Part shown: one piece after another, positions 14,331-23,492 of the stretch
Layout of the letters: every line of letters starts with the position of its first letter
How positions within the stretch are numbered: the stretch's first letter is position 1
Assembly (NCBI GenBank): GCA_964399615.1
Contig: CAYNTE010000002.1
Coordinates: 1-38,516 of the forward strand
Origin: an uncultured Thermomicrobiales bacterium
GTDB lineage: Bacteria > Chloroflexota > Chloroflexia > Thermomicrobiales > CFX8
Length of the DNA stretch: 38,516 nucleotides
Reading direction: 5' to 3'
Position numbers and translations under genes: made by a program
Notes under the pieces: generated by a model
What the model was told of the DNA's origin: nothing
The model's input: the letters and a program-made list of their open reading frames with translations, nothing else
Database searches by the model: none

Positions 14331-15020
14331 ATGGCGAACTGGATAACGATCGGCCGCGTCGCACTGCTCTTTTTCGCGGTCGCACTGCTCTATACCGATA
14401 ATGCCGGGATCATTGTGCTGGCTGGTGTTCTGCTTGCCATTGTCTTTCTCGGCGATGCTGTCGACGGCTGGGTCGCTCGCTGGCAAGGATCGACCAGCAA
14501 GCTCGGTGCAGTGCTCGATATTGCTGGCGATCGCGTGGTCGAGAATGTCCTCTGGGTGGTCTTTGCTCATCTCAACGTCATCCCTGTCTGGGCGCCACTG
14601 ATCGTGCTGACACGGTCCTTTACGGTAGATTCCGTGCGGGCAGCCATGCTTGAGCGCGGACTCACGCCATTTGGCGATACGACGATGATGCGCTCGCCAG
14701 TGACGGCATTTCTGACGTCTAGTCGCGCTAGTCGTGCCTACTACGGGTGGTCGAAGGCGCTGGCGTTTGTGCTGCTTGCGGGCCTCTATGCCTGGCAAAT
14801 CGACAGCGACATGGTGCTGTCTTGGATCTACGATGTGGATCTCTTCCGTGGTTTGGTCTGGTTCCTGGTGTATTCTTCGCTTGCGATTTGTGTCATTCGT
14901 GGACTGCCAGTAATTTTTGACGCACTGGCGCATTTCCGGGAAGCAGAAGAACCGGAAGCTGAGGACCACAGCATGGAGCCCATGAAGGCGGAGCAGCCAG
15001 AGCGTGGACAGACGGTCTAA
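14331..15020 (+). CDS. CDP-alcohol phosphatidyltransferase (PgsA / phosphatidylinositol-phosphate synthase-like)
   Basis: Signature D-G-x2-A-R-x8-G-x3-D-x3-D is present as DAVDGWVARWQGSTSKLGAVLDIAGDRV. Multi-TM protein. RBS GGGGGA lies upstream. Confidence 0.85.
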   Translation: MANWITIGRVALLFFAVALLYTDNAGIIVLAGVLLAIVFLGDAVDGWVARWQGSTSKLGAVLDIAGDRVVENVLWVVFAHLNVIPVWAPLIVLTRSFTVDSVRAAMLERGLTPFGDTTMMRSPVTAFLTSSRASRAYYGWSKALAFVLLAGLYAWQIDSDMVLSWIYDVDLFRGLVWFLVYSSLAICVIRGLPVIFDALAHFREAEEPEAEDHSMEPMKAEQPERGQTV

Positions 15021-16071
15021 TCGCATCCGAACAAGTCAAGCCACCCCGCTGCGAAAGCTGGTGGTCCGGGCAACCATGCTGCTGGCGCGTGCGGCCAGCG
15101 CTGTGGCCTTCGTGACGCCTGTCTGGATCGGATATTTGGTGGCCGACGCGGTTGGGCACTGGATGTTCTGGCGGTTTGGCGGCTATCGCGAATCGGTCAT
15201 CAGCAACCTCAGCCACGTCTATCGAGACAGGCTCTCGGCTCGGGAGATTCGCCAGCGCGCTCGCTGGGTCTTCCGCGTTTCGGCACGAAATTTCTGGGAT
15301 CTCACGACGGTCCCCCACTTCAGCACGCGCCGCATGAGCCATTTACAGGAGGTGCTGGAGGGATCGTGGCAAACGCTCGAAGATCTGCTGGCCGAAGGGC
15401 GGGGGGTCATTGTCGTTACCGGCCATCTCGGCGCTTTCGACTTCGTCGGACAATATTTCATCGATCGATTCAAGCCGCTGGCCCTGACGGCACCGACGGT
15501 GAATGAGTCGCTCTTTACCGCGGTGACCAATCTGCGCTCAAGCCGCGGAGGACGGCTGGCGGTGGCTGGGCCGGATGCCTTGCGCAAGATCATCGCGGAG
15601 CTGAAGGATGGCGGCATGGTCGTGATGGTCGCTGATCGAGACTTCACGGACTCCGGGGCGCCAATCGATTTCTTTGGTACTCCGACACGGTTGCCATCTG
15701 GGCCGGTAAAGCTGGCCCGCCAGTTCGGCAGTCCGATCGTGCCAGTCTTTACCTACCGGCGAAACATCAAGACGCGCGAACGACGCTTTGGCTTCACGAT
15801 TGGTGAGCCGATCTGGGTGGAGAAGACGGCTAGCCGAGAGCATGATCTCGAAGCCGGCATGCGCCGCGTTGCCGCGGCATTGGAGCGCGCAATCCTCCGC
15901 TCTCCTGAGCAGTGGGTCATGTTCCAGTCGGTCTGGAAGCCGTCGCCCGCCGGTGCAGTTGGGACGGAGCCGCTGCCGGAGCCGGACGCCCAAACCGAAG
16001 TTGTGACATCCGGCGCGGCGCCGGCTGCGATCTCGTCGACGATACCGGTGGACGACCCGATCGAGGATTAA
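15004..16071 (+). CDS. Lysophospholipid/lipid A-type acyltransferase (HtrB/LpxL/PatA family)
   Basis: HX4D acyltransferase motif in VVTGHLGAFDFVG. The N-terminal hydrophobic segment and overall layout match the lauroyl/myristoyl acyltransferase family. Overlaps the upstream gene by 17 nt. An alternative start is ATG 15076. Confidence 0.78.
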   Translation: MDRRSNRIRTSQATPLRKLVVRATMLLARAASAVAFVTPVWIGYLVADAVGHWMFWRFGGYRESVISNLSHVYRDRLSAREIRQRARWVFRVSARNFWDLTTVPHFSTRRMSHLQEVLEGSWQTLEDLLAEGRGVIVVTGHLGAFDFVGQYFIDRFKPLALTAPTVNESLFTAVTNLRSSRGGRLAVAGPDALRKIIAELKDGGMVVMVADRDFTDSGAPIDFFGTPTRLPSGPVKLARQFGSPIVPVFTYRRNIKTRERRFGFTIGEPIWVEKTASREHDLEAGMRRVAAALERAILRSPEQWVMFQSVWKPSPAGAVGTEPLPEPDAQTEVVTSGAAPAAISSTIPVDDPIED

Positions 16072-16080
16072 TCCTCGCCC

Positions 16081-18855
16081 CTACTTGACGACCAGATTTA
16101 CCAGCCGCGTGGGAACATAGATCTCGCGAACGATCTCGCCATCCAGATAGCCCGCGACATTTTCCTGGGCCTTGCCCGCGGCAATGGCTTCCTCGGCACT
16201 GGCATTTGCCGGGATAGAGACATGTCCGCGCACCTTGCCGTTGACCTGCACGGGGATCTCGATTACATCATCAGCAGCCAGCGCAGCGTCCCACGCGGGC
16301 CACGCCTGGGTATGAATGCTGAATTCGTTGCCCATGCGCGACCACAGCTCCTCGGCGATGTGCGGTGCACTCGGGGCCAGCATCAGCGCCAGTGTGCGCG
16401 TCGCTTCAGCCCAGGCCGCGTCGTTGACGATGGGGGTCTCATGCAGCTTCATCAGCTCGTTCACAAATTCCATCAGCTTGGCGACCATAGTGTTCCAGCT
16501 GAACGCCTCGATATCGCGGGTCACATCGCGCAGCACCTGGTGGGTCGTGCGTTGTAGCTGGCGGATCTCATCAGCCGGCGCTTTCCCCTCGATGCGGGTG
16601 TCGGTGTCGACGACGACCGTCCAGACACGGTCCAGGAAGCGGCGCACACCATTGATGCCCATCGAATCCCATGGGCCAGTTGCCGACCAGGGCCGCATGA
16701 ACATCAGGAAGAGGCGGACGGTGTCTGCGCCATATTGACCGACCAGATCGTCGGGGTCGATGACATTGCCACGACTCTTCGACATCTTCTCGTTGTCTTC
16801 ACCCAGGATGAACCCCTGGTTGATCAGCCGCGCGAACGGCTCGTCGATGCCGATCATGCCGCAGTCACGCATTGCCTTGGTCCAGAAGCGCGTGTAGAGC
16901 AGATGCAGCACTGCATGTTCGCGGCCACCGGTGTACTGGTTGACGGGCATCCAGCGCTCGGTCAGGTCGGTATCGAACGGCACATCGTCAGCGTTCGGGC
17001 TCAGGTAGCGGTAGTAGTACCAGGATGAATCCACGAAGGTGTCCATGGTGTCGGTCTCACGCCGGGCCGCTCCGCCGCACTCCGGGCAGGTGACGTTCAG
17101 GAAGCCCTCGTGCGTCCTCAGTGGAGACTCGCCGGTCGGCTTGAACTCGGCATCTTCCGGCAGCACGACGGGCAGGTCTTCCTCCGGCACTGGCACAACG
17201 CCGCAGTTGTCGCAGTAGATGATCGGGATCGGCGTGCCCCAGTAGCGCTGTCGTGAGATCAGCCAGTCGCGCAGGCGGTATGTCACCGTGGATGCGGCCG
17301 CACCCTGCTTCTCCAGCCAGGCGATGGAGTCGGAGATGGCCGTTTCACCGGCAGTGCCGGTCAGCTCGCCGGAGTTGATCATTGCGCCCTCGTCATGGTG
17401 GAAGACACATTCGGCCAGCCACGGCTCACTCTGCAGGTAGTTTATTGCCGTTGGCGCGCCGACGTAGCTCGCGATCTCGCGGTCGGTCTCCATTGATTCC
17501 AGCTCGATGGACCGGCCGGGAATCACCACGCCTGTTCGCGCGCCAGCGTAGGCGACGGCTCCGCCTTCATAGACATGACCAATTGCCATCTCCAGGAACC
17601 GATCGACGTCGCCGGCGGGCAGGGTGATGGCAAAACCACCATCGTCCTGACGGTAATCGGTGAATCCGCCTTCATTCAGCGCGACTTCAAACGCTTCAGG
17701 TGCTTCCAGCATAGATTCGCGAGCGTAAACCCTGGTGAGGCCGTCAGCGCGCTCGATGACCGGAATGACGGGCAGGTCGTACTTCAAGGCGAACTCGAAG
17801 TCACGTTCGTCGTGGGCCGGGACAGCCATCACCGAGCCGGTGCCATACGACATAAGCACATAATCGGCAATCCAGATCGGGATGCGTTCGCCGCTGGCGG
17901 GGTTGATGGCGTAGCTGCCGATGAAGACGCCGCTCTTTTCGGTCTCGGTCGATTGGCGGACGATCTCACTCCGGCGCGCGGCCTCTTGGCGATATGCCTC
18001 GACCTCGGTGCGGTGTTCGTCGGCGGTGAGCTCCTCAACCAGGGGGTGTTCGGGAGCCAGCACCATAAACGTGGTGCCCCAGATGGTGTCTGGTCTGGTT
18101 GTGAAGACGGGGATCTCCTGCCCGCTTTCAGCCTTGAAGGTAACCGTCGCTCCCTCGGAGCGGCCGATCCAGTTGGTCTGCATCATGCGGACTGGTTCGG
18201 GCCAGTCGATGGTGGAGAAGTCCAGCAGCTCGTCGGCGTAGTCAGTAATGCGCAAGAACCATTGCTCCATGTTGCGCTGATAGACCTCGGTGCCGCAGCG
18301 TTCGCAGCGACCATCTACCACTTGCTCGTTAGCCAGCACCGTCTGACAATTTGGGCACCACCAGACTGGAGCTTCCTTGCGATAGGCCAGACCACGCTCA
18401 AAGAACTTCAGGAAGAACCACTGGTTCCACTTGTAATATTCGGGGTCGCAGGTGACGACTTCCTGGTCCCAGTCGAACATGGTGCCCATCGAACGCATCT
18501 GCCGGCGCATGTTCTCGATATTGTCCATCGTCCACTTGTATGGGTGGATGCCTCGCCTGATGGCGGCGTTTTCGGCTGGCAGGCCGAATGCGTCGAACCC
18601 CATCGGGAAGAAGACGTTGTAGCCTTGCATGCGCTTGTAGCGTGCCGCGGCATCGGAAGGCGTCATAGCGTACCAGTGCCCGATGTGGAGGTCGCCGGAC
18701 GGGTAGGGGTACATGGTGACGGCGTACCAGTGCGGCTCTTGGTCTGGCTGGAAGCGATAGAGTCCGGCATCTTGCCAGGCTTCTTGCCAGCGTGACTCGA
18801 TCGTGCCGGGGTCGTAGCTGTCGGTTTTTGGTTTGGCGGATTTCGAGGTCACCAT
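16081..18855 (-). CDS. leuS: Leucyl-tRNA synthetase
   Basis: HIGH (LHIGHWY) and KMSKS motifs, CP1 editing-domain signature TTRPDTIWG, and YRLRDWLISRQRYWGTPIP. True start is ATG 18855 (MVTSKSAKPK...), preceded by GAAGGAG (18869-18863). The tracked ORF to 19017 runs through a tRNA gene and a terminator. Confidence 0.97.
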   Translation of the reverse strand: MVTSKSAKPKTDSYDPGTIESRWQEAWQDAGLYRFQPDQEPHWYAVTMYPYPSGDLHIGHWYAMTPSDAAARYKRMQGYNVFFPMGFDAFGLPAENAAIRRGIHPYKWTMDNIENMRRQMRSMGTMFDWDQEVVTCDPEYYKWNQWFFLKFFERGLAYRKEAPVWWCPNCQTVLANEQVVDGRCERCGTEVYQRNMEQWFLRITDYADELLDFSTIDWPEPVRMMQTNWIGRSEGATVTFKAESGQEIPVFTTRPDTIWGTTFMVLAPEHPLVEELTADEHRTEVEAYRQEAARRSEIVRQSTETEKSGVFIGSYAINPASGERIPIWIADYVLMSYGTGSVMAVPAHDERDFEFALKYDLPVIPVIERADGLTRVYARESMLEAPEAFEVALNEGGFTDYRQDDGGFAITLPAGDVDRFLEMAIGHVYEGGAVAYAGARTGVVIPGRSIELESMETDREIASYVGAPTAINYLQSEPWLAECVFHHDEGAMINSGELTGTAGETAISDSIAWLEKQGAAASTVTYRLRDWLISRQRYWGTPIPIIYCDNCGVVPVPEEDLPVVLPEDAEFKPTGESPLRTHEGFLNVTCPECGGAARRETDTMDTFVDSSWYYYRYLSPNADDVPFDTDLTERWMPVNQYTGGREHAVLHLLYTRFWTKAMRDCGMIGIDEPFARLINQGFILGEDNEKMSKSRGNVIDPDDLVGQYGADTVRLFLMFMRPWSATGPWDSMGINGVRRFLDRVWTVVVDTDTRIEGKAPADEIRQLQRTTHQVLRDVTRDIEAFSWNTMVAKLMEFVNELMKLHETPIVNDAAWAEATRTLALMLAPSAPHIAEELWSRMGNEFSIHTQAWPAWDAALAADDVIEIPVQVNGKVRGHVSIPANASAEEAIAAGKAQENVAGYLDGEIVREIYVPTRLVNLVVK

Positions 18856-18885
18856 GCAGTCGCTCCTTCGCGCAGCGCGAGAATT

Positions 18886-18952
18886 AGAAAAGAACGAACC
18901 CCCCATCCCAAAAACAGGGACGGAGGGTATGCTCCGCGGTACCACCCTGGTT
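18886..18952 (-). promoter_or_regulatory. T-box riboswitch 3' half: T-box sequence, antiterminator and competing intrinsic terminator upstream of leuS
   Basis: The minus strand reads AACCAGGGTGGTACCGCGGAG (18952-18932), close to the T-box consensus AAnnnGGGUGGUACCGCG. The bulge UGGU (18944-18941) can pair with a tRNA 3' ACCA end. The antiterminator is AGGG/UGGUACC/GCGGAG-cauacc-CUCCGU/CCCU. The alternative 12-bp terminator is ACCCUCCGUCCC (18928-18917) paired with GGGAUGGGGGGU (18909-18898), followed by UCGUUCUUUUCU. Confidence 0.9.
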
Positions 18953-18978
18953 GGCGGGAACACCGCGGCGTCAGACTC

Positions 18979-19054
18979 TGGTGGAGCTGACGGGATTCGA
19001 ACCCGTGACCTCAACACTGCCAGTGTTGCGCTCTCCCAGCTGAGCTACAGCCCC
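18979..19054 (-). tRNA. tRNA-Ala (anticodon GGC), CCA encoded
   Basis: The minus strand reads GGGGCUGUAGCUCAGCUGGGAGAGCGCAACACUGGCAGUGUUGAGGUCACGGGUUCGAAUCCCGUCAGCUCCACCA. It folds as a perfect cloverleaf. The 7-bp acceptor stem includes the Ala identity pair G3:U70. D stem is GCUC/GAGC. Anticodon stem is CAACA/UGUUG with loop CU-GGC-AG. T stem is ACGGG/CCCGU with loop UUCGAAU. Discriminator is A73. Confidence 0.97.
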
Positions 19055-19140
19055 AGATCATTCGAGACCGGTGTTCAGCCCACTCAAGTAGCCTGCTATC
19101 GGAGGCCAATCCGGCGATTGCTTACCCTGAAGGTTCACAA

Positions 19141-19240
19141 TCACGGCTCCCGGGCGAGTTCGAACTCGATACCCATCTGCCACCTCGCACCGACCGGCGG
19201 CTCTCTGTTCGGAGCATCGATCTACTACTCCCGATCATCG
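19141..19240 (-). promoter_or_regulatory. T-box riboswitch Stem I with Leu specifier (CUC)
   Basis: The minus strand starts with the typical GCGAUGA-ucgg-GAGUAG (GA/K-turn plus AGUA-box). Helix UCGAUGCUC pairs with GGGUAUCGA. AG bulge is AGAGA (19206-19202). The distal helix GCCGCC/GGUGGC encloses loop GGUCGGUGCGAG (GGUGNRA-like). The specifier loop is GUUC-GAA-CUC-G, with CUC at 19158-19156 followed by a purine. Closing helix is CCCGG/UCGGG, then GCCGUGA. Confidence 0.8.
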
Positions 19241-19290
19241 CCAGCACACCAGCAGCCACCAGCCGGTGAGCGACTGTTGTGCGTGCAGCA

Positions 19291-19319
19291 AGCCTACCAG
19301 TGGCTTCGAGCGGCGTCAA
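19291..19319 (-). promoter_or_regulatory. Candidate sigma-70-type promoter for the T-box/tRNA-Ala/leuS transcript
   Basis: The minus strand reads TTGACG (19319-14), a 17-nt spacer, then TAGGCT (19296-91), about 50 nt upstream of Stem I. Confidence 0.4.
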
Positions 19320-19439
19320 TTATGGTGATGAGAATTGTGGAAGCATCCGCTGCATGCGTAATCCTGATGGTCCGTATTGACGTCTTGCGGATGAGATTGC
19401 CAGTCATGTTGTACAGGAAGTTGAGGGAGGGACGACGGG

Positions 19440-20078
19440 ATGGATACGAACCGGCTACAGGAGATCGGTGACGAGATCATCAATGACCTCGAAGGCGTGA
19501 ATGCAGCGCGTGAGGGTGCGTTGCCGGAGACGCGGCGGATCATCAGACTGAGTGCGAACTCGATTCGAGCGGCGCACCGGGGCGAGATCGATGTGGCCGA
19601 CGAGCTCACGAGCGAGGCTCGGGAGCGGATGGCTACACTCGTCGAGAGCCTCGCGTCGCAGCCGAGTATCTATTGGGCCGGTTATCTCCGCGACGCGCAG
19701 AAGGAGATGGCCGAAGCGCATCTGACGCTGGCCGTGCTCGCAGATCGGGAGTGGCCGACGCCGGATGAGCTCGGTGTCGAAGGTGCTGCCTACCTGAACG
19801 CGCTGGCCGAGACAGCTGGCGAGCTTCGACGCCACGCGCTCGACTCCATGCGGCGCGGTGAGCTGGAACGTGCCGAGCGGGTGCTCTCGATCATGAACGA
19901 GATTCACGATCTGCTGGTGACGGTTGACTTTCCAGACGCCGTTACGGGAGGCTTGCGGCGCTCGACCGATCTTGCTCGTGGGGTGACTGAACGCACGCGT
20001 GGGGATTTAACGATTGCATTGCGTCAACGAGAGTTGAGCGATTCGCTCGCGCGACTAGAAGCCAAACTTGGCAACTAA
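19440..20078 (+). CDS. Translin-family protein (COG2178-like predicted nucleic-acid-binding protein)
   Basis: RBS GAGGGAGGGA lies upstream. The protein is all-helical. The C-terminal pattern AAYLNALAETAGELRRHALDSMRRGE...FPDAVTGGLRRSTDLARGVTERTRGDL resembles the translin pattern (DY-L-G-..-EL-R ... LRKRYD...VE) as I recall it. No search was run. Confidence 0.6.
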   Translation: MDTNRLQEIGDEIINDLEGVNAAREGALPETRRIIRLSANSIRAAHRGEIDVADELTSEARERMATLVESLASQPSIYWAGYLRDAQKEMAEAHLTLAVLADREWPTPDELGVEGAAYLNALAETAGELRRHALDSMRRGELERAERVLSIMNEIHDLLVTVDFPDAVTGGLRRSTDLARGVTERTRGDLTIALRQRELSDSLARLEAKLGN

Positions 20079-20174: not shown

Positions 20175-21725
20175 ATGCCGGTGGCGTTCCGGAGGTGCTG
20201 GCTGAGGCGGTCATTCACGATCTTGATGGTGAGCGTCCTCGTTAGCGGTGGTGTGCAGCTGCTGCTGAGTCGGCCCGCGTCAGCACAAGTAAGCGTCAGC
20301 TACTACTTCCCGTGGGTTCCCCATGGCGAGGTCGTGAATGGCCAGGGGCCCTGGTACGCCGATCTGGCATTCCAGAATCTCACGAGCGAACTCTGCTCGG
20401 TGGTGGTCTCAGTCGGGCAGCATGATGGTGAGGGCTGGCGCCGGACATCGCAGTTAACGGTCGGAGCGAATGGCTCGCGGACGCTGTCGTCGGCTTCACT
20501 AGCGATACCGGAGCCGGGCGCACCGGTGCGACTCGATGCCTACTGCACACTCTCTGCCAGCCTGAAGCTCTTCAGCCCGGAGCCCAGGACCTCGCCCTGG
20601 AGCAACGGCGCGCACGTCGTTGCGGGGTATTCGAGTTACACGAACAGCGATATTCAGGCCGCGATCTCGGGCGGCGCCAATACCTGGTATCTGCCGATTG
20701 TGCAGACCAACTCACAGTGGAACAGCATTATCCGTGTTGCGAACTACGAGTTGACACGGTCGATCCAGGCGACTATCGAGCTGACGAGGTCGGCACAGTC
20801 CCCGGCGTCCGGCCCAGAGACGCAGACCATCACCCGCAGCATTGAGCCCGGAACAACCGCCTCGGTCGACGTGCTGGCGGAGCTTGGAACCAGAGATTGG
20901 GTCGGATACGCAACAATCAAATCGAATGGACTGAGTGGGACGATGGTGTTGCGTTCCAAGCCCAGCGCGTCGATGGCGGTGATCAACATGGGCCAGGCAA
21001 GCTCAAGCAGCACCAGCCAGGAGCAATATCGCCTCGGTGCACCCCTGCTCTTCACGAACTACAACGACTGGAACACCGGCATCAACATCGCCAATGTCTC
21101 GGAACAGCCGGCCCACATTACGATTAGCTACAGCTCGGCCGCGGGCAACATCGTGCGAACTGATGAGTTGGATCTCGCGCCGCGCGCCATGACCTATCTC
21201 TACACACCGGCGAGCGTCGATCAGGACGACTTCGTCGGCAGTGCCAGCATCGTCAGCAATGCGCCGATTGTCGCGGCTATTGATGAGGTGAAGTACACAT
21301 CTGTCGACGCAATCTCATATCTGGCCAGCGCGGTCGGGCAACAACAAGCCTCTGTCCCGCTGGTCTTCAAATCGGATCCAGATGCCGGCCTGCACGACAA
21401 TTCGGGATTGAATCTCCACAGTATGAACCCGGACAGCTCGCAGACCGTCTCGATCGAGCTCTTCTCGATCAATGGCGTGGCGCTGACTGATCAGCCGATC
21501 AGCTTGACCTTGCCACCCGCTGGAAACAACTACATCTACATCCCCGAGACCGAGGAGGTGCCAAATGGCTCGCTCATCTCAGCACGGATCACGACGACCG
21601 ATGCGCTCGGCTTCATTGGGCTGGCGAATGATGTGAACTACGCCGTTGCGGGCGACGGATCGGCAACGTTCATGATCACGAGCGATCGCGGCACTTATCA
21701 CCTGTCCCCGTCATCGTTCCGCTAG
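20175..21725 (+). CDS. Hypothetical secreted protein with four internal beta-rich repeats (unknown family)
   Basis: RBS AGGGGG lies upstream. Signal peptide is ...ILMVSVLVSGGVQLLLSRPASAQ. Four repeats of about 110-125 aa each begin with a P-hydrophobic-x(5-8)-W-x-[ST]-x-[IL]-x-[IV/F]-x-N pattern: YYFPWVPH...WYADLAFQN, WYLPIVQTNSQWNSIIRVAN, APLLFTNYNDWNTGINIAN, VPLVFKSD...NSGLNLHSMN. The second and third repeats have a G-[YS]A-[TS]I-x-SN strand (GYATIKSN, GSASIVSN), and the fourth has a weaker counterpart (ISARITTTD). Confidence 0.7.
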   Translation: MPVAFRRCWLRRSFTILMVSVLVSGGVQLLLSRPASAQVSVSYYFPWVPHGEVVNGQGPWYADLAFQNLTSELCSVVVSVGQHDGEGWRRTSQLTVGANGSRTLSSASLAIPEPGAPVRLDAYCTLSASLKLFSPEPRTSPWSNGAHVVAGYSSYTNSDIQAAISGGANTWYLPIVQTNSQWNSIIRVANYELTRSIQATIELTRSAQSPASGPETQTITRSIEPGTTASVDVLAELGTRDWVGYATIKSNGLSGTMVLRSKPSASMAVINMGQASSSSTSQEQYRLGAPLLFTNYNDWNTGINIANVSEQPAHITISYSSAAGNIVRTDELDLAPRAMTYLYTPASVDQDDFVGSASIVSNAPIVAAIDEVKYTSVDAISYLASAVGQQQASVPLVFKSDPDAGLHDNSGLNLHSMNPDSSQTVSIELFSINGVALTDQPISLTLPPAGNNYIYIPETEEVPNGSLISARITTTDALGFIGLANDVNYAVAGDGSATFMITSDRGTYHLSPSSFR

Positions 21726-21800: not shown

Positions 21801-23492
21801 GTGCTTGTGACGAGTGGAACCGAACGTCTGGACGTTTCAAAATTCTACAAATACGACGAACTGGTCGGAATTCTCAACGGCTGGGTCGATAGCTATCCTG
21901 AGCTTGCGAGCCTGGAGAGCATCGGCAAGTCCTACGAGGGCCGCGATATCTGGCTCTTGACGGTGACCAGCCAGAAAGGTGGCACACCGGACGAGAAGCC
22001 TGCGCTCTATATCGATGCCAATATTCACGCCGGCGAGGTGACGGGCTCCAGTGTCTTGCTCTGGACCGTCGACGAGTTACTGCGCGGCTATGGCAACGAC
22101 AGCACCATTACCACCCTGCTCGATACCCGCACCTTCTACTTCGCGCCGCGCGTTCAGCCCGATGGTGTCGAACTCTATCTGACGTCACCCACGATGCTGC
22201 GGTCATCGGTCCGGCCATGGCCGTTTGAGGAAAGCGGCGAGGGGCTACAGGCGGAAGACATCAACGGTGACGGCAAGATCCTTCAGATGCGCATTGAAGA
22301 CCCCAACGGTGAGTGGAAGGTCTCAGACAAAGACCCGCGCCTGATCATCAAACGCGAGCCGGACGAACTTGAGGGCACCTTCTACCGCATCTACGTCGAG
22401 GGCATGATCAAGGACCCAGACGGTGGCCCGCTGAAGATCGGGCGCACGAAGTATGGGCTCGATCAAAACCGCAACTGGCCCGAGAACTGGTCGATGCTGC
22501 AGCGTGGCGCGGGTCCACATCCCCTCTCCGAGCCGGAGACGCGTGCCGTGGCGACCTTCATTACGACGCACCCCAACATTACCGTCGTGCAGAATTACCA
22601 TACAGCTGGTGGGGTCGTGCTGCGCCCACCGTGCGCAGTCGATGATGCGGTGATTCCGCCACGAGATCTCGATATTTACAATGAGTTCGGCAAGATCGGC
22701 GAGGCCGTCACTGGCTATCCATGTGCGTCAGTCTATGATGCCTTCCCGCTGCGTGATGACGAGGGGCGACGCAGTCAGTCGGGCGGATTCATCGAGTGGA
22801 CCTACGGCCACTACGGCATCTGGTCATTCGCAACTGAACTCTGGGACTTGCAGTCGCGGGCAGGAATTGAGAAGCCGGCGAACGATGCCATGCGCGTGGC
22901 GCGCGAGATGACCGAAGAAGATGGACTCAAGATCCTGGCGTTCGTCGATAGCGAGCTGAATGGCGAAGGGATCATTCCCTGGGAGCCGTTCGACCACCCA
23001 CAGCTCGGCAAGGTCGAGATCGGTGGCTGGGATGGCAAGTATCTGCGGCAGAACGCACCCGCAAAGTTCCTGACCGACGAGGCCGAACGCAATGGCAAGT
23101 TCACCATCCGCCAGGCTGCGATGACGCCGCTGCTCGGTCTGGAGAACGTATCCGCTGAGCAAGTTGCCGATGGCCTCTCGATTGTTCGCGCGACAGTCGT
23201 CAATCAGGGCTATCTGCCGACGCACCTCTCGTGGATGGCGCGTAAGAACCGTGCTGTCAAGCCGATCGAGATCGAGGTCGAAGGCGGAGAGGTGCTGATG
23301 GGCAAGCGCAAGCAAGAGATCGGCCATCTGGCGGGCCGTATCTCCATGCGTGGCTTTGGCGCCATGAGCGGCATGATGAAAACCGACAACGAGCGCCAGG
23401 TCGAGTGGCTCGTGCGCGGCACCGGTTCAGTTACCATCCACGCCCGCTCCGAAAAGGGCGGCACGGTGCGCCAGGAAGTCCAGCTCGGCTAG
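21801..23492 (+). CDS. M14-family zinc carboxypeptidase (no obvious signal peptide)
   Basis: N-terminal YYKYDELVGILNGWVDSYPELASLESIGKSYEGRDIWLLTV and zinc-binding HxxE in DANIHAGEVTG. A second His region is NYHTAGGVVLRP. The start could be GTG 21801 or GTG 21807, with AAGGAT just upstream. Confidence 0.85.
   Translation: MLVTSGTERLDVSKFYKYDELVGILNGWVDSYPELASLESIGKSYEGRDIWLLTVTSQKGGTPDEKPALYIDANIHAGEVTGSSVLLWTVDELLRGYGNDSTITTLLDTRTFYFAPRVQPDGVELYLTSPTMLRSSVRPWPFEESGEGLQAEDINGDGKILQMRIEDPNGEWKVSDKDPRLIIKREPDELEGTFYRIYVEGMIKDPDGGPLKIGRTKYGLDQNRNWPENWSMLQRGAGPHPLSEPETRAVATFITTHPNITVVQNYHTAGGVVLRPPCAVDDAVIPPRDLDIYNEFGKIGEAVTGYPCASVYDAFPLRDDEGRRSQSGGFIEWTYGHYGIWSFATELWDLQSRAGIEKPANDAMRVAREMTEEDGLKILAFVDSELNGEGIIPWEPFDHPQLGKVEIGGWDGKYLRQNAPAKFLTDEAERNGKFTIRQAAMTPLLGLENVSAEQVADGLSIVRATVVNQGYLPTHLSWMARKNRAVKPIEIEVEGGEVLMGKRKQEIGHLAGRISMRGFGAMSGMMKTDNERQVEWLVRGTGSVTIHARSEKGGTVRQEVQLG

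Follow-up and report, generated by a model that had tools for sequence, protein, structure and literature searches.

A tRNA-Ala(GGC) gene predicted to reside in the Stem III loop of leucine-specific T-box leaders of leuS and ilvE

The window, by which we mean the whole stretch of 38,516 nt analyzed in this work, comes from an uncultured Thermomicrobiales bacterium of the phylum Chloroflexota (contig CAYNTE010000002.1), and the element considered here is the leader of its leuS gene on the minus strand. The leader has the appearance of a leucine-specific T-box riboswitch that encloses a complete tRNA-Ala(GGC) gene. It occupies a divergent intergenic region of 585 nt between leuS, which extends from the ATG at 18855 to the stop at 16081 (924 aa), and an open reading frame (ORF) on the plus strand that starts with the ATG at 19440. 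Homologues of the leuS product are leucine--tRNA ligases with up to 73% identity, and the LeuRS Pfam domains are found on these homologues. The elements of the leader and their sources are given below. All leader coordinates refer to the minus strand of the window, and names of the form L### used later in the text denote loci from a genome collection.

19291..19319, minus: candidate leader promoter, TTGACG (19319-19314), 17 nt, TAGGCT (19296-19291); read from sequence
18913..19247, minus: complete Leu T-box leader including the nested tRNA; RF00230 covariance-model alignment
19146..19241, minus: Stem I; covariance-model alignment
within Stem I, minus: K-turn start GCGAUGA, AGUAGUA, and AG bulge AGAGA (19206-19202); covariance-model alignment
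19195-19184, minus: Stem I distal loop GGUCGGUGCGAG; covariance-model alignment
19156..19158, minus: specifier codon CUC (Leu; reads the tRNA-Leu anticodon GAG) in the specifier loop GAA-CUC-G; covariance-model alignment
19143-19137 / 19121-19115, minus: Stem II; derived from the covariance-model alignment
19113-19111 / 19102-19100, minus: Stem IIA/B hairpin; derived from the covariance-model alignment
19081..19085, minus: purine motif GAGUG (RRRNG) 5' of Stem III; alignment, kept across related loci
19069..19080, minus: 5' strand of Stem III, GGC (19080-19078), U bulge, GAACACCG (19076-19069); fold and complementarity
19055..19068, minus: 5' leader of the tRNA, 14 nt, U at -1; read from sequence
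18979..19054, minus: tRNA-Ala(GGC), 76 nt, G3:U70, A73, encoded CCA; ARAGORN, Rfam tRNA 68.9 bits
18978-18966, minus: 3' trailer of the tRNA, 13 nt; sequence, alignment and fold
18953..18965, minus: 3' strand of Stem III, CGGUGUUC (18965-18958), CC, GCC (18955-18953); alignment and fold
18952-18935, minus: T-box sequence AACCAGGGUGGUACCGCG with UGGU at 18944-18941; covariance-model alignment
18952-51, minus: AA; covariance-model alignment
within 18948-18916, minus: antiterminator, AGGG (18948-45), bulge UGGUACC (18944-38), GCGGA (18937-33), loop, UCCGUCCCU (18924-16); covariance-model alignment
18888..18928, minus: intrinsic terminator, 12-bp stem 18928-18898 plus U-rich tail; terminator scan
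18869-18863, minus: ribosome-binding site (RBS) GAAGGAG; read with the ORF list
16081..18855, minus: leuS, 924 aa; ORF list

A search of positions 18700-19500 with the Rfam T-box model RF00230 and permissive filters produced one full-length match (19247-18913, model positions 1-219 of 219) with a score of 87.4 bits and E=1.6e-19. This score lies below the Rfam gathering score of 93, and a search of the whole window at the Rfam gathering thresholds returned no T-box match. In the alignment, GAGUG and five Stem III positions are followed by the only insertion, which is 118 nt long and takes the place of a 9-nt Stem III loop in the model. The deficit relative to the gathering score can be attributed to the penalty for this insertion, which also extends the leader to a length of about 335 nt. 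A preceding inspection of the letters alone, hereafter the sequence-only reading, had recognized Stem I with its K-turn, AGUA, AGAGA, distal loop and GAA-CUC-G motifs, a T-box sequence with UGGU, and a 12-bp terminator with a U-tract followed by an RBS and leuS. Each of the Stem I motifs was confirmed by the RF00230 alignment, which also places the T-box sequence at 18952-18935, and the terminator scan, the ORF list and the homologues agree with the remainder. Stem I comprises the K-turn, a specifier loop made of the S-turn GAA, the codon and a purine, the AG bulge and the distal loop. The specifier CUC (Leu) corresponds to the function of the gene downstream. At the UGGN bulge, AGGGUGGUACCGCG carries UGGU, and the U of the bulge fits A73, the discriminator base of tRNA-Leu. 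The 5' strand of the terminator overlaps the 3' strand of the antiterminator (18948-18916), which makes the two hairpins mutually exclusive.

The tRNA-Ala(GGC) with G3:U70 and CCA at 19054-18979, also described in the sequence-only reading, was called by ARAGORN as the only tRNA of the entire 38.5-kb window, and its 68.9 bits under the Rfam tRNA model compare with a gathering score of 29. No gene for the cognate tRNA-Leu was detected within the window. The segments that flank the tRNA proved different from what had been proposed. The "86-nt linker" between Stem I and the tRNA consists, in the Rfam alignment, of Stem II, Stem IIA/B, GAGUG and the 5' strand of Stem III, while the "26 nt with a small hairpin" on the other side are the 13-nt trailer and the 3' strand of Stem III, whose pairing partner lies on the upstream side of the tRNA. 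In particular, GGC and GAACACCG upstream of the tRNA are complementary to CGGUGUUC and GCC downstream of it, and the centroid fold of the segment contains a 7-bp helix that encloses the tRNA arms and corresponds to Stem III. The two strands are bracketed by GAGUG and AA and thus form the 5'-RRRNG-Stem III-AA-3' module, which is the discriminator signature of T-boxes (PMC7778990, PMC11404447). Judged from alignment and fold, the tRNA is inserted into an extended Stem III at its apical loop, between RRRNG and AA, and the T-box topology is predicted to be intact. The earlier notion of one leucine T-box interrupted by a tRNA-Ala survives in that a single covariance-model match spans the tRNA, but not in its description of two separated halves.

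The distribution of this arrangement was assessed in a collection with one genome per species (185,579 species), which was scanned for any tRNA T-loop (GGTTCRANTCY) followed 28-58 nt later by GGGTGGNACCGCG. The pattern does not pick up independent leaders downstream of a tRNA, because a spacing of 28-58 nt is too short to accommodate one. At least 119 loci match, compared to about 10-20 matches expected by chance in the whole collection according to our rough estimate. The counts refer to 120 sequences (the 119 listed loci plus the window); the census is a lower bound, and it is biased towards intact tRNAs because the scan demanded exact conserved motifs. Among these listed matches, ARAGORN detected a tRNA ending at the T-loop in 115 of 120 sequences and specifically tRNA-Ala(GGC) in 112, and three of the five sequences with no ARAGORN call are truncated by the end of the locus. 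Other tRNAs are present in L059 (Arg-CCG), L103 (Val-GAC) and L110 (Gly-UCC), and none in L017 and L076. We discarded L059 and L103 as candidates for additional nested-tRNA T-boxes; Rfam finds no T-box in either, and they represent chance matches.

By record title, the listed carriers include about 48 Chloroflexota (Thermomicrobiales, Chloroflexia, Anaerolineae, Caldilineae, Limnocylindria and Ktedonobacter), about 45 Bacillota (Syntrophomonadaceae, Peptococcaceae, Thermacetogeniaceae and Desulfitispora) and 7 Armatimonadota. The isolate genomes among them are Thermosyntropha lipolytica DSM 11003, Desulfitispora alkaliphila DSM 22410, Syntrophomonas palmitatica JCM 14374 and S. wolfei subsp. 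methylbutyratica JCM 14075, while Sphaerobacter is represented among the listed carriers by metagenome-assembled genomes. Application of RF00230 to 18 related loci gave a full-length match spanning the tRNA in 17, with scores of 48-122.5 bits, and seven of the 18 leaders exceed the 93-bit gathering score despite the insertion. The nested arrangement is a conserved architecture that occurs in at least three phyla and 5' of two kinds of gene, and not a one-off. Many carriers are metagenome-assembled genomes (MAGs), some of which have implausible taxonomic labels, and the location of many loci on MAG contigs could be seen as a sign of assembly artefacts or of chance juxtaposition. Such an origin is contradicted by more than 100 independent assemblies that include the four isolate genomes, and by the two tested non-Ala matches (L059 and L103), whose lack of a T-box indicates that chance hits look different; recurrence combined with the covariation described below refutes it, and its probability is in our view negligible. 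Six of the MAGs (L005, L006, L015, L040, L083 and L095) are labelled Acidiferrales, proteobacterium, Methylocystaceae, Proteobacteria, Desulfarculaceae and Bdellovibrionales, respectively. Their LeuS and IlvE sequences resemble those of the Chloroflexota and Bacillota carriers, and the contigs are probably mis-binned.

The specifier is nearly invariant, with [ACG]AACUC[AG] at the specifier position in 107 of 108 listed related leaders, which identifies them as Leu(CUC) T-boxes. The gene downstream is leuS in about 92 of the listed loci and ilvE, encoding a branched-chain aminotransferase and called with NCBIfam equivalog models above their cut-offs, in about 16. Nested Leu(CUC) T-boxes linked to ilvE are found in Armatimonadota and Anaerolineae (L023, L041, L042, L046, L047, L050, L051, L056, L068, L081, L083, L100, L101, L102 and L113). 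In one Armatimonadota lineage, the leader module of leuS including its tRNA (L062) is 87% identical to the ilvE modules (L056) and only 54-61% identical to the leuS leaders of other phyla; the T-box and the tRNA therefore appear to have been copied whole, as a unit. A single listed locus (L052:1287-1574, 116.7 bits) has a nested-tRNA Leu T-box 5' of a gene of the fatty-acid-CoA-ligase family, an unusual T-box target. We also considered two potential pairings in cis and rejected both. The triplet after the specifier, which in the window (CUC-GCC) could pair with the tRNA-Ala anticodon, varies among the leaders (GCC, GUC, ACC, GUU, AUC), and the internal ACCA of the nested tRNA cannot be a conserved mimic that pairs with the UGGU bulge, as CCA is absent in 30 of 112 listed homologues.

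The Stem III loop is the exact insertion site in every listed locus. The spacers between Stem III and the tRNA vary from 0 to 37 nt, and Stem III is often located 1-5 nt from the acceptor stem. The extra length amounts to a median of 94 nt among the listed loci and to about 100-118 nt in the window, depending on the choice of the Stem III end. An unanchored search for the longest helix selected spurious helices, and Stem III was consequently evaluated with motif-anchored tests. In the first test, which was anchored solely on the RRRNG and AA motifs and covered the first six positions in 92 non-redundant sequences, 84.1% of the cells are paired, compared with 24-42% in slid registers. When the partners were permuted among sequences, 66.4% of the cells were paired (maximum 70.5%), and none of 2000 permutations reached the observed value. 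The pair types alternate, the third pair being U-A in 37 sequences and C-G in 40. A second count, made with a pair-counting tool on a MAFFT alignment of 66 diverse segments, found Stem III paired in 87.8% of cases, with compensatory double changes at three of four pairs (20, 24 and 14 sequences), and the four tRNA helices paired in 100%, with double changes at 15 of 21 pairs. For the whole structure the paired fraction is 98.3%, versus 79.3% after shuffling (0 of 500 shuffles reach the observed value) and 41-52% in slid registers. RNAalifold independently recovers the tRNA cloverleaf from the MAFFT alignment. It does not recover Stem III, whose 5' strand is split by gaps in this alignment, and Stem III was scored explicitly instead.

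Because Stem I is conserved and Stem III pairs across the tRNA, Stem I, the tRNA and the antiterminator are expected to reside on one nascent RNA. The positions of promoter-like sites lead to the same expectation. Sites that satisfy the sigma70-like criteria of the scan tool accumulate 165-250 nt before tRNA position +1, that is, just 5' of Stem I; they are present there in 62 of 99 listed loci, with 58 hits in three bins compared to about 7 in shuffled sequences, while a promoter-like site within 70 nt of the tRNA was found in only 1 of the 99. The proposal that the tRNA is co-transcribed within the riboswitch, made in the sequence-only reading, is supported by the Stem III covariation and by the 62/99 versus 1/99 contrast. 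Its promoter, TTGACG-17-TAGGCT, fared less well: the string exists at 19319-19291, but its -10 element shares just 3 of 6 positions with TATAAT, too few for a call by the consensus scan.

The weakness of this candidate promoter, together with a TTGAGT-19 nt-AATGAT string just 5' of the tRNA in the window, might be taken to indicate two independent units, namely a tRNA with its own promoter and a leuS leader that starts downstream, the upstream Stem I being a relic or part of some other element. As the sequence-only reading had noted, however, there is no second Stem I or independent T-box downstream of the tRNA: the 26 nt between the tRNA and the T-box sequence leave no space for a Stem I, and RF00230 matches only once in 18700-19500. 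Moreover, Stem I and the specifier are kept in 107 of 108 listed loci, as would not be expected of a relic, Stem III covaries across the tRNA, and promoter-like sites before the tRNA are far rarer than those 5' of Stem I (1/99 and 62/99, respectively). We therefore consider two separate units highly improbable. At the other end of the leader, a U-tract follows the antiterminator in 100 of 111 listed leaders. No obvious U-tract was seen in L023, L056, L062, L081, L101, L113, L012, L071, L074, L114 and L087, and several of these have GGAGG near an alternative hairpin.

The nested tRNA itself is strongly constrained. G3:U70, A73 and the anticodon GGC are each present in 112 of 112 listed homologues, which comprise 70 distinct tRNA bodies; CCA is encoded in 82 of the 112 and absent in 30, and U is found at position -1 in 67 of 106 listed loci. 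The role of G3:U70 in recognition by AlaRS is established. Fixation of GGC, G3:U70 and A73, while the stems change by compensation, points to selection for aminoacylation and decoding, and these sequences bear the signature of a functional, aminoacylatable tRNA-Ala rather than of a structural mimic. The opposite view would treat the insert as a tRNA-like structural module, an expansion of Stem III that is never matured to a decoding tRNA. In favor of a structural module one could cite the helix around the insert, the partial base-pairing of its leader and trailer, a kind of pairing that can hinder RNase P, and the lack of CCA in 30 of the 112. We find it very unlikely nevertheless, given the three identity elements that do not vary while the stems do, Rfam tRNA scores of 61-70 bits, a near-identical free-standing ortholog in L200 (see below), and the enrichment of U at -1.

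The sequence-only reading had suggested a comparison with the leuS upstream regions of related genomes, in which the tRNA might appear as an insertion into an otherwise contiguous T-box. Uninterrupted T-boxes do exist in relatives, several of which have the orthologous tRNA directly upstream of the T-box. We selected an unbiased sample of 80 metagenomic leuS loci by homology to the LeuS N-terminus (61-74% identity). The nested arrangement (state A) is seen in L120, L121 and L131. In state B (L129, L130, L141, L159, L195 and L198), tRNA-Ala(CGC) and tRNA-Ala(GGC) lie directly in front of a Leu(CUC) T-box that is not interrupted, and the distance from the tRNA to the T-box ranges from 8 nt (in L198) to 140 nt. 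A T-box with no tRNA (state C) also occurs in the sample, and in state D (L148, L149, L161, L163 and L164) tRNA-Ala(GGC), with or without tRNA-Ala(CGC), precedes a leuS gene that has no detectable T-box. Neither a T-box sequence nor a tRNA was found upstream of leuS in 56 of the 80 loci. The leuS locus of the Thermomicrobium roseum type (L200, 1110-1451) belongs to state B; its tRNA-Ala(GGC), near-identical to the nested tRNA of the window, is located 55 nt 5' of a canonical Leu(CUC) T-box of 103.8 bits with an ordinary 7-bp Stem III. An extra tRNA-Ala(CGC) is present just 5' of Stem I in the nested leaders L018, L121 (913-986) and L131 (967-1040), and its position beside the nested GGC gene is compatible with a duplication-and-deletion route between the arrangements.

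From these comparisons, the linkage of tRNA-Ala(GGC) with leuS appears to be older and broader than the nesting, and nesting is seemingly one of at least two positions of the tRNA, both upstream of the attenuator terminator. State B gaps as short as 8 nt imply one transcript in these relatives, too. Since the T-boxes of state B are uninterrupted, the switch evidently needs no tRNA inside it, which favors a reading of the tRNA as a passenger that is expressed constitutively, and suggests that what matters is a location upstream of the attenuator rather than a special role in sensing.

These results lead us to propose, as the probable explanation, that the leader in the window is a Leu-specific (CUC) transcription-attenuating T-box of leuS that carries tRNA-Ala(GGC) in its Stem III loop, the tRNA being expressed constitutively while leuS expression is conditional. 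In this scenario, RNA polymerase would start at the leader promoter and transcribe Stem I and Stem II first, and these would capture tRNA-Leu(GAG). The tRNA-Ala would be transcribed next, fold independently and close Stem III, and the T-box sequence would follow. With uncharged tRNA-Leu, the ACCA end would pair with UGGU, the antiterminator would hold and leuS would be read through; otherwise the terminator would form. Whatever the outcome, the transcript would already contain the tRNA-Ala precursor, to be released by RNase P and 3' processing. Because the tRNA precedes the attenuator, tRNA-Ala(GGC) would be made constitutively, and leuS or ilvE only in response to uncharged tRNA-Leu(GAG). The sensing decision would be co-transcriptional and would either precede RNase P cleavage and 3' processing or be insensitive to them; T-boxes decide within about a second of antiterminator synthesis (PMC6197855). 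Discriminator function involves no part of Stem III other than its base, or termini (PMC11404447), and for this reason the loop of Stem III can be viewed as a permissive insertion site. Stem III is also the first programmed pause (position 138 in B. subtilis glyQS), which provides time for tRNA engagement (PMC13001445, PMC6197855). At 40-50 nt/s, an insert of 94 nt (the median) at this pause site would lengthen the interval from Stem I emergence to the decision by about 2 s.

Several points weigh against this explanation. The T-box score of the window, 87.4, is under the gathering score of 93, and the candidate promoter in the window is weak. The 11 of 111 listed leaders in which no obvious U-tract was seen may be translational T-boxes that sequester the RBS. 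Co-transcription, cleavage by RNase P and 3' processing are steps that we infer from sequence. A permissive site alone leaves the restriction to tRNA-Ala(GGC) and Leu T-boxes unexplained beyond common descent, and a CCA-encoding precursor within a read-through mRNA would need an endonucleolytic cut for its 3' maturation.

One could also see the nested tRNA not as a passenger but as an integral, functional component of the switch. Three versions can be envisioned. The additional ~100 nt might serve as a delay line or pause module at Stem III and prolong the time in which tRNA-Leu can be captured; cleavage by RNase P and at the 3' side might sever Stem I/II from the expression platform and free the tRNA-Leu, leaving a leuS mRNA whose new hairpin-capped 5' end sets its stability; or a threshold might be set by the tRNA elbow as a cis competitor for the Stem I platform. 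An integral role would agree with the use of the Stem III loop as the insertion site in every listed locus, which is where canonical T-boxes pause (PMC13001445, PMC6197855), with the persistence of the arrangement through deep divergence in three phyla, with the copying of the module including the tRNA as a unit from leuS to ilvE, and with the frequent distance of only 1-5 nt between Stem III and the acceptor stem, which could modulate the access of RNase P. On the other hand, close relatives regulate leuS by an uninterrupted T-box with the orthologous tRNA just upstream, the spacers that separate Stem III from the tRNA differ widely in length (0-37 nt), and there is no conserved pairing in cis, the triplet after the specifier not being a conserved GCC and CCA being absent in 30 of 112 listed tRNAs. 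On balance we regard an integral role as unlikely. Equally doubtful is the integrated model in which the tRNA at the Stem III pause sets the kinetic window for the capture of tRNA-Leu, and in which its excision by RNase P and 3' nucleases irreversibly uncouples the sensor (Stem I and II with the bound tRNA-Leu) from the leuS mRNA, resets the ligand pool and determines where the mRNA begins and how stable it is. If it were true, the output of the riboswitch would be shaped by co-transcriptional sensing versus tRNA maturation, possibly with a coupling of the tRNA-Ala supply to the control of leucine charging. The passenger reading, with a constitutive tRNA ahead of a conditional leuS, remains the one we prefer.

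In line with the sequence-only reading, which knew of no T-box with a nested tRNA gene, the literature that we searched, including TBDB (PMC7778990), a T-box survey from 2008 (PMC2494555), a paper on T-box structure from 2024 (PMC11404447) and a riboswitch survey from 2025 (PMC12452182), describes no T-box that contains a tRNA gene, although many subscription papers are unsearchable and a prior mention is possible. As far as we found, it is the first case of a riboswitch in which a functional RNA gene separates the sensing domain from the expression platform.

The leuS leader of B. subtilis is a canonical T-box with a CUC specifier. The nested leader is like canonical leuS T-boxes (RF00230) in all defining domains, in CUC, in UGGU against A73, in the terminator/antiterminator pair and in its location 5' of leuS, and differs in the Stem III loop, which is about 9 nt in canonical leaders and 118 nt in the window, where it holds the 76-nt tRNA and spacers. 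The state B loci (L200, L129, L130, L141, L159, L195 and L198) share the orthologous tRNA-Ala(GGC), the CUC T-box, leuS and a tRNA upstream of the attenuator, but their tRNA lies 5' of Stem I, Stem III is short and ordinary, and nothing is nested. In E. coli, thrU-tyrU-glyT-thrT-tufB is transcribed from one promoter and the tRNAs are released by processing. This operon resembles the present case in the co-transcription of tRNAs with a translation-related protein gene; there, however, the tRNAs merely precede the mRNA, whereas the tRNA in the window is situated between sensor and expression platform. Stem Sa of staphylococcal glyS (PMC9177973) is likewise a conserved, lineage-specific T-box insertion that leaves the core mechanism intact, but it is a simple stem in the terminator/antiterminator domain, neither a gene nor in Stem III. 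The GOLLD RNA (PMC12990946) also contains a tRNA within a larger structured non-coding RNA and raises the same question of its release, but it is a large RNA of unknown function with the tRNA in a single-stranded junction and no regulated gene downstream.

Some features of the surroundings are noted for completeness. The LeuS protein of the window is a long form of 924 aa, while many Thermomicrobiales relatives have 825-830 aa and their best local segment covers only about 45% of the window query; this contrast suggests a large insertion or a domain difference. Two plus-strand ORFs divergent from the leuS leader, 19440-20078 (212 aa) and 20175-21725 (516 aa), have no Pfam match at E<=1e-5. Also near leuS are genes for a Lip_A_acyltrans family protein (15004-16071, plus strand) and a Peptidase_M14 (21801-23492, plus strand).

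Many nested leaders fall below the Rfam gathering score (87.4 bits in the window, 48-91 bits in others), and because the insertion penalty puts such T-boxes under the threshold, the regulation of leuS and ilvE is under-annotated in Chloroflexota and Armatimonadota. In these leaders, automatic software for T-box folding may well place Stem III incorrectly. The arrangement indicates that the tip of Stem III tolerates a folded insertion of about 100 nt in nature, consistent with structural work that confines function to the base of Stem III. By its design it would make the co-transcriptional sensing of tRNA compete in time with tRNA processing, and cultivable carriers exist. It also points to a simple rule, that whatever sits upstream of an attenuator would be expressed constitutively, which may extend to other genes embedded in leaders.

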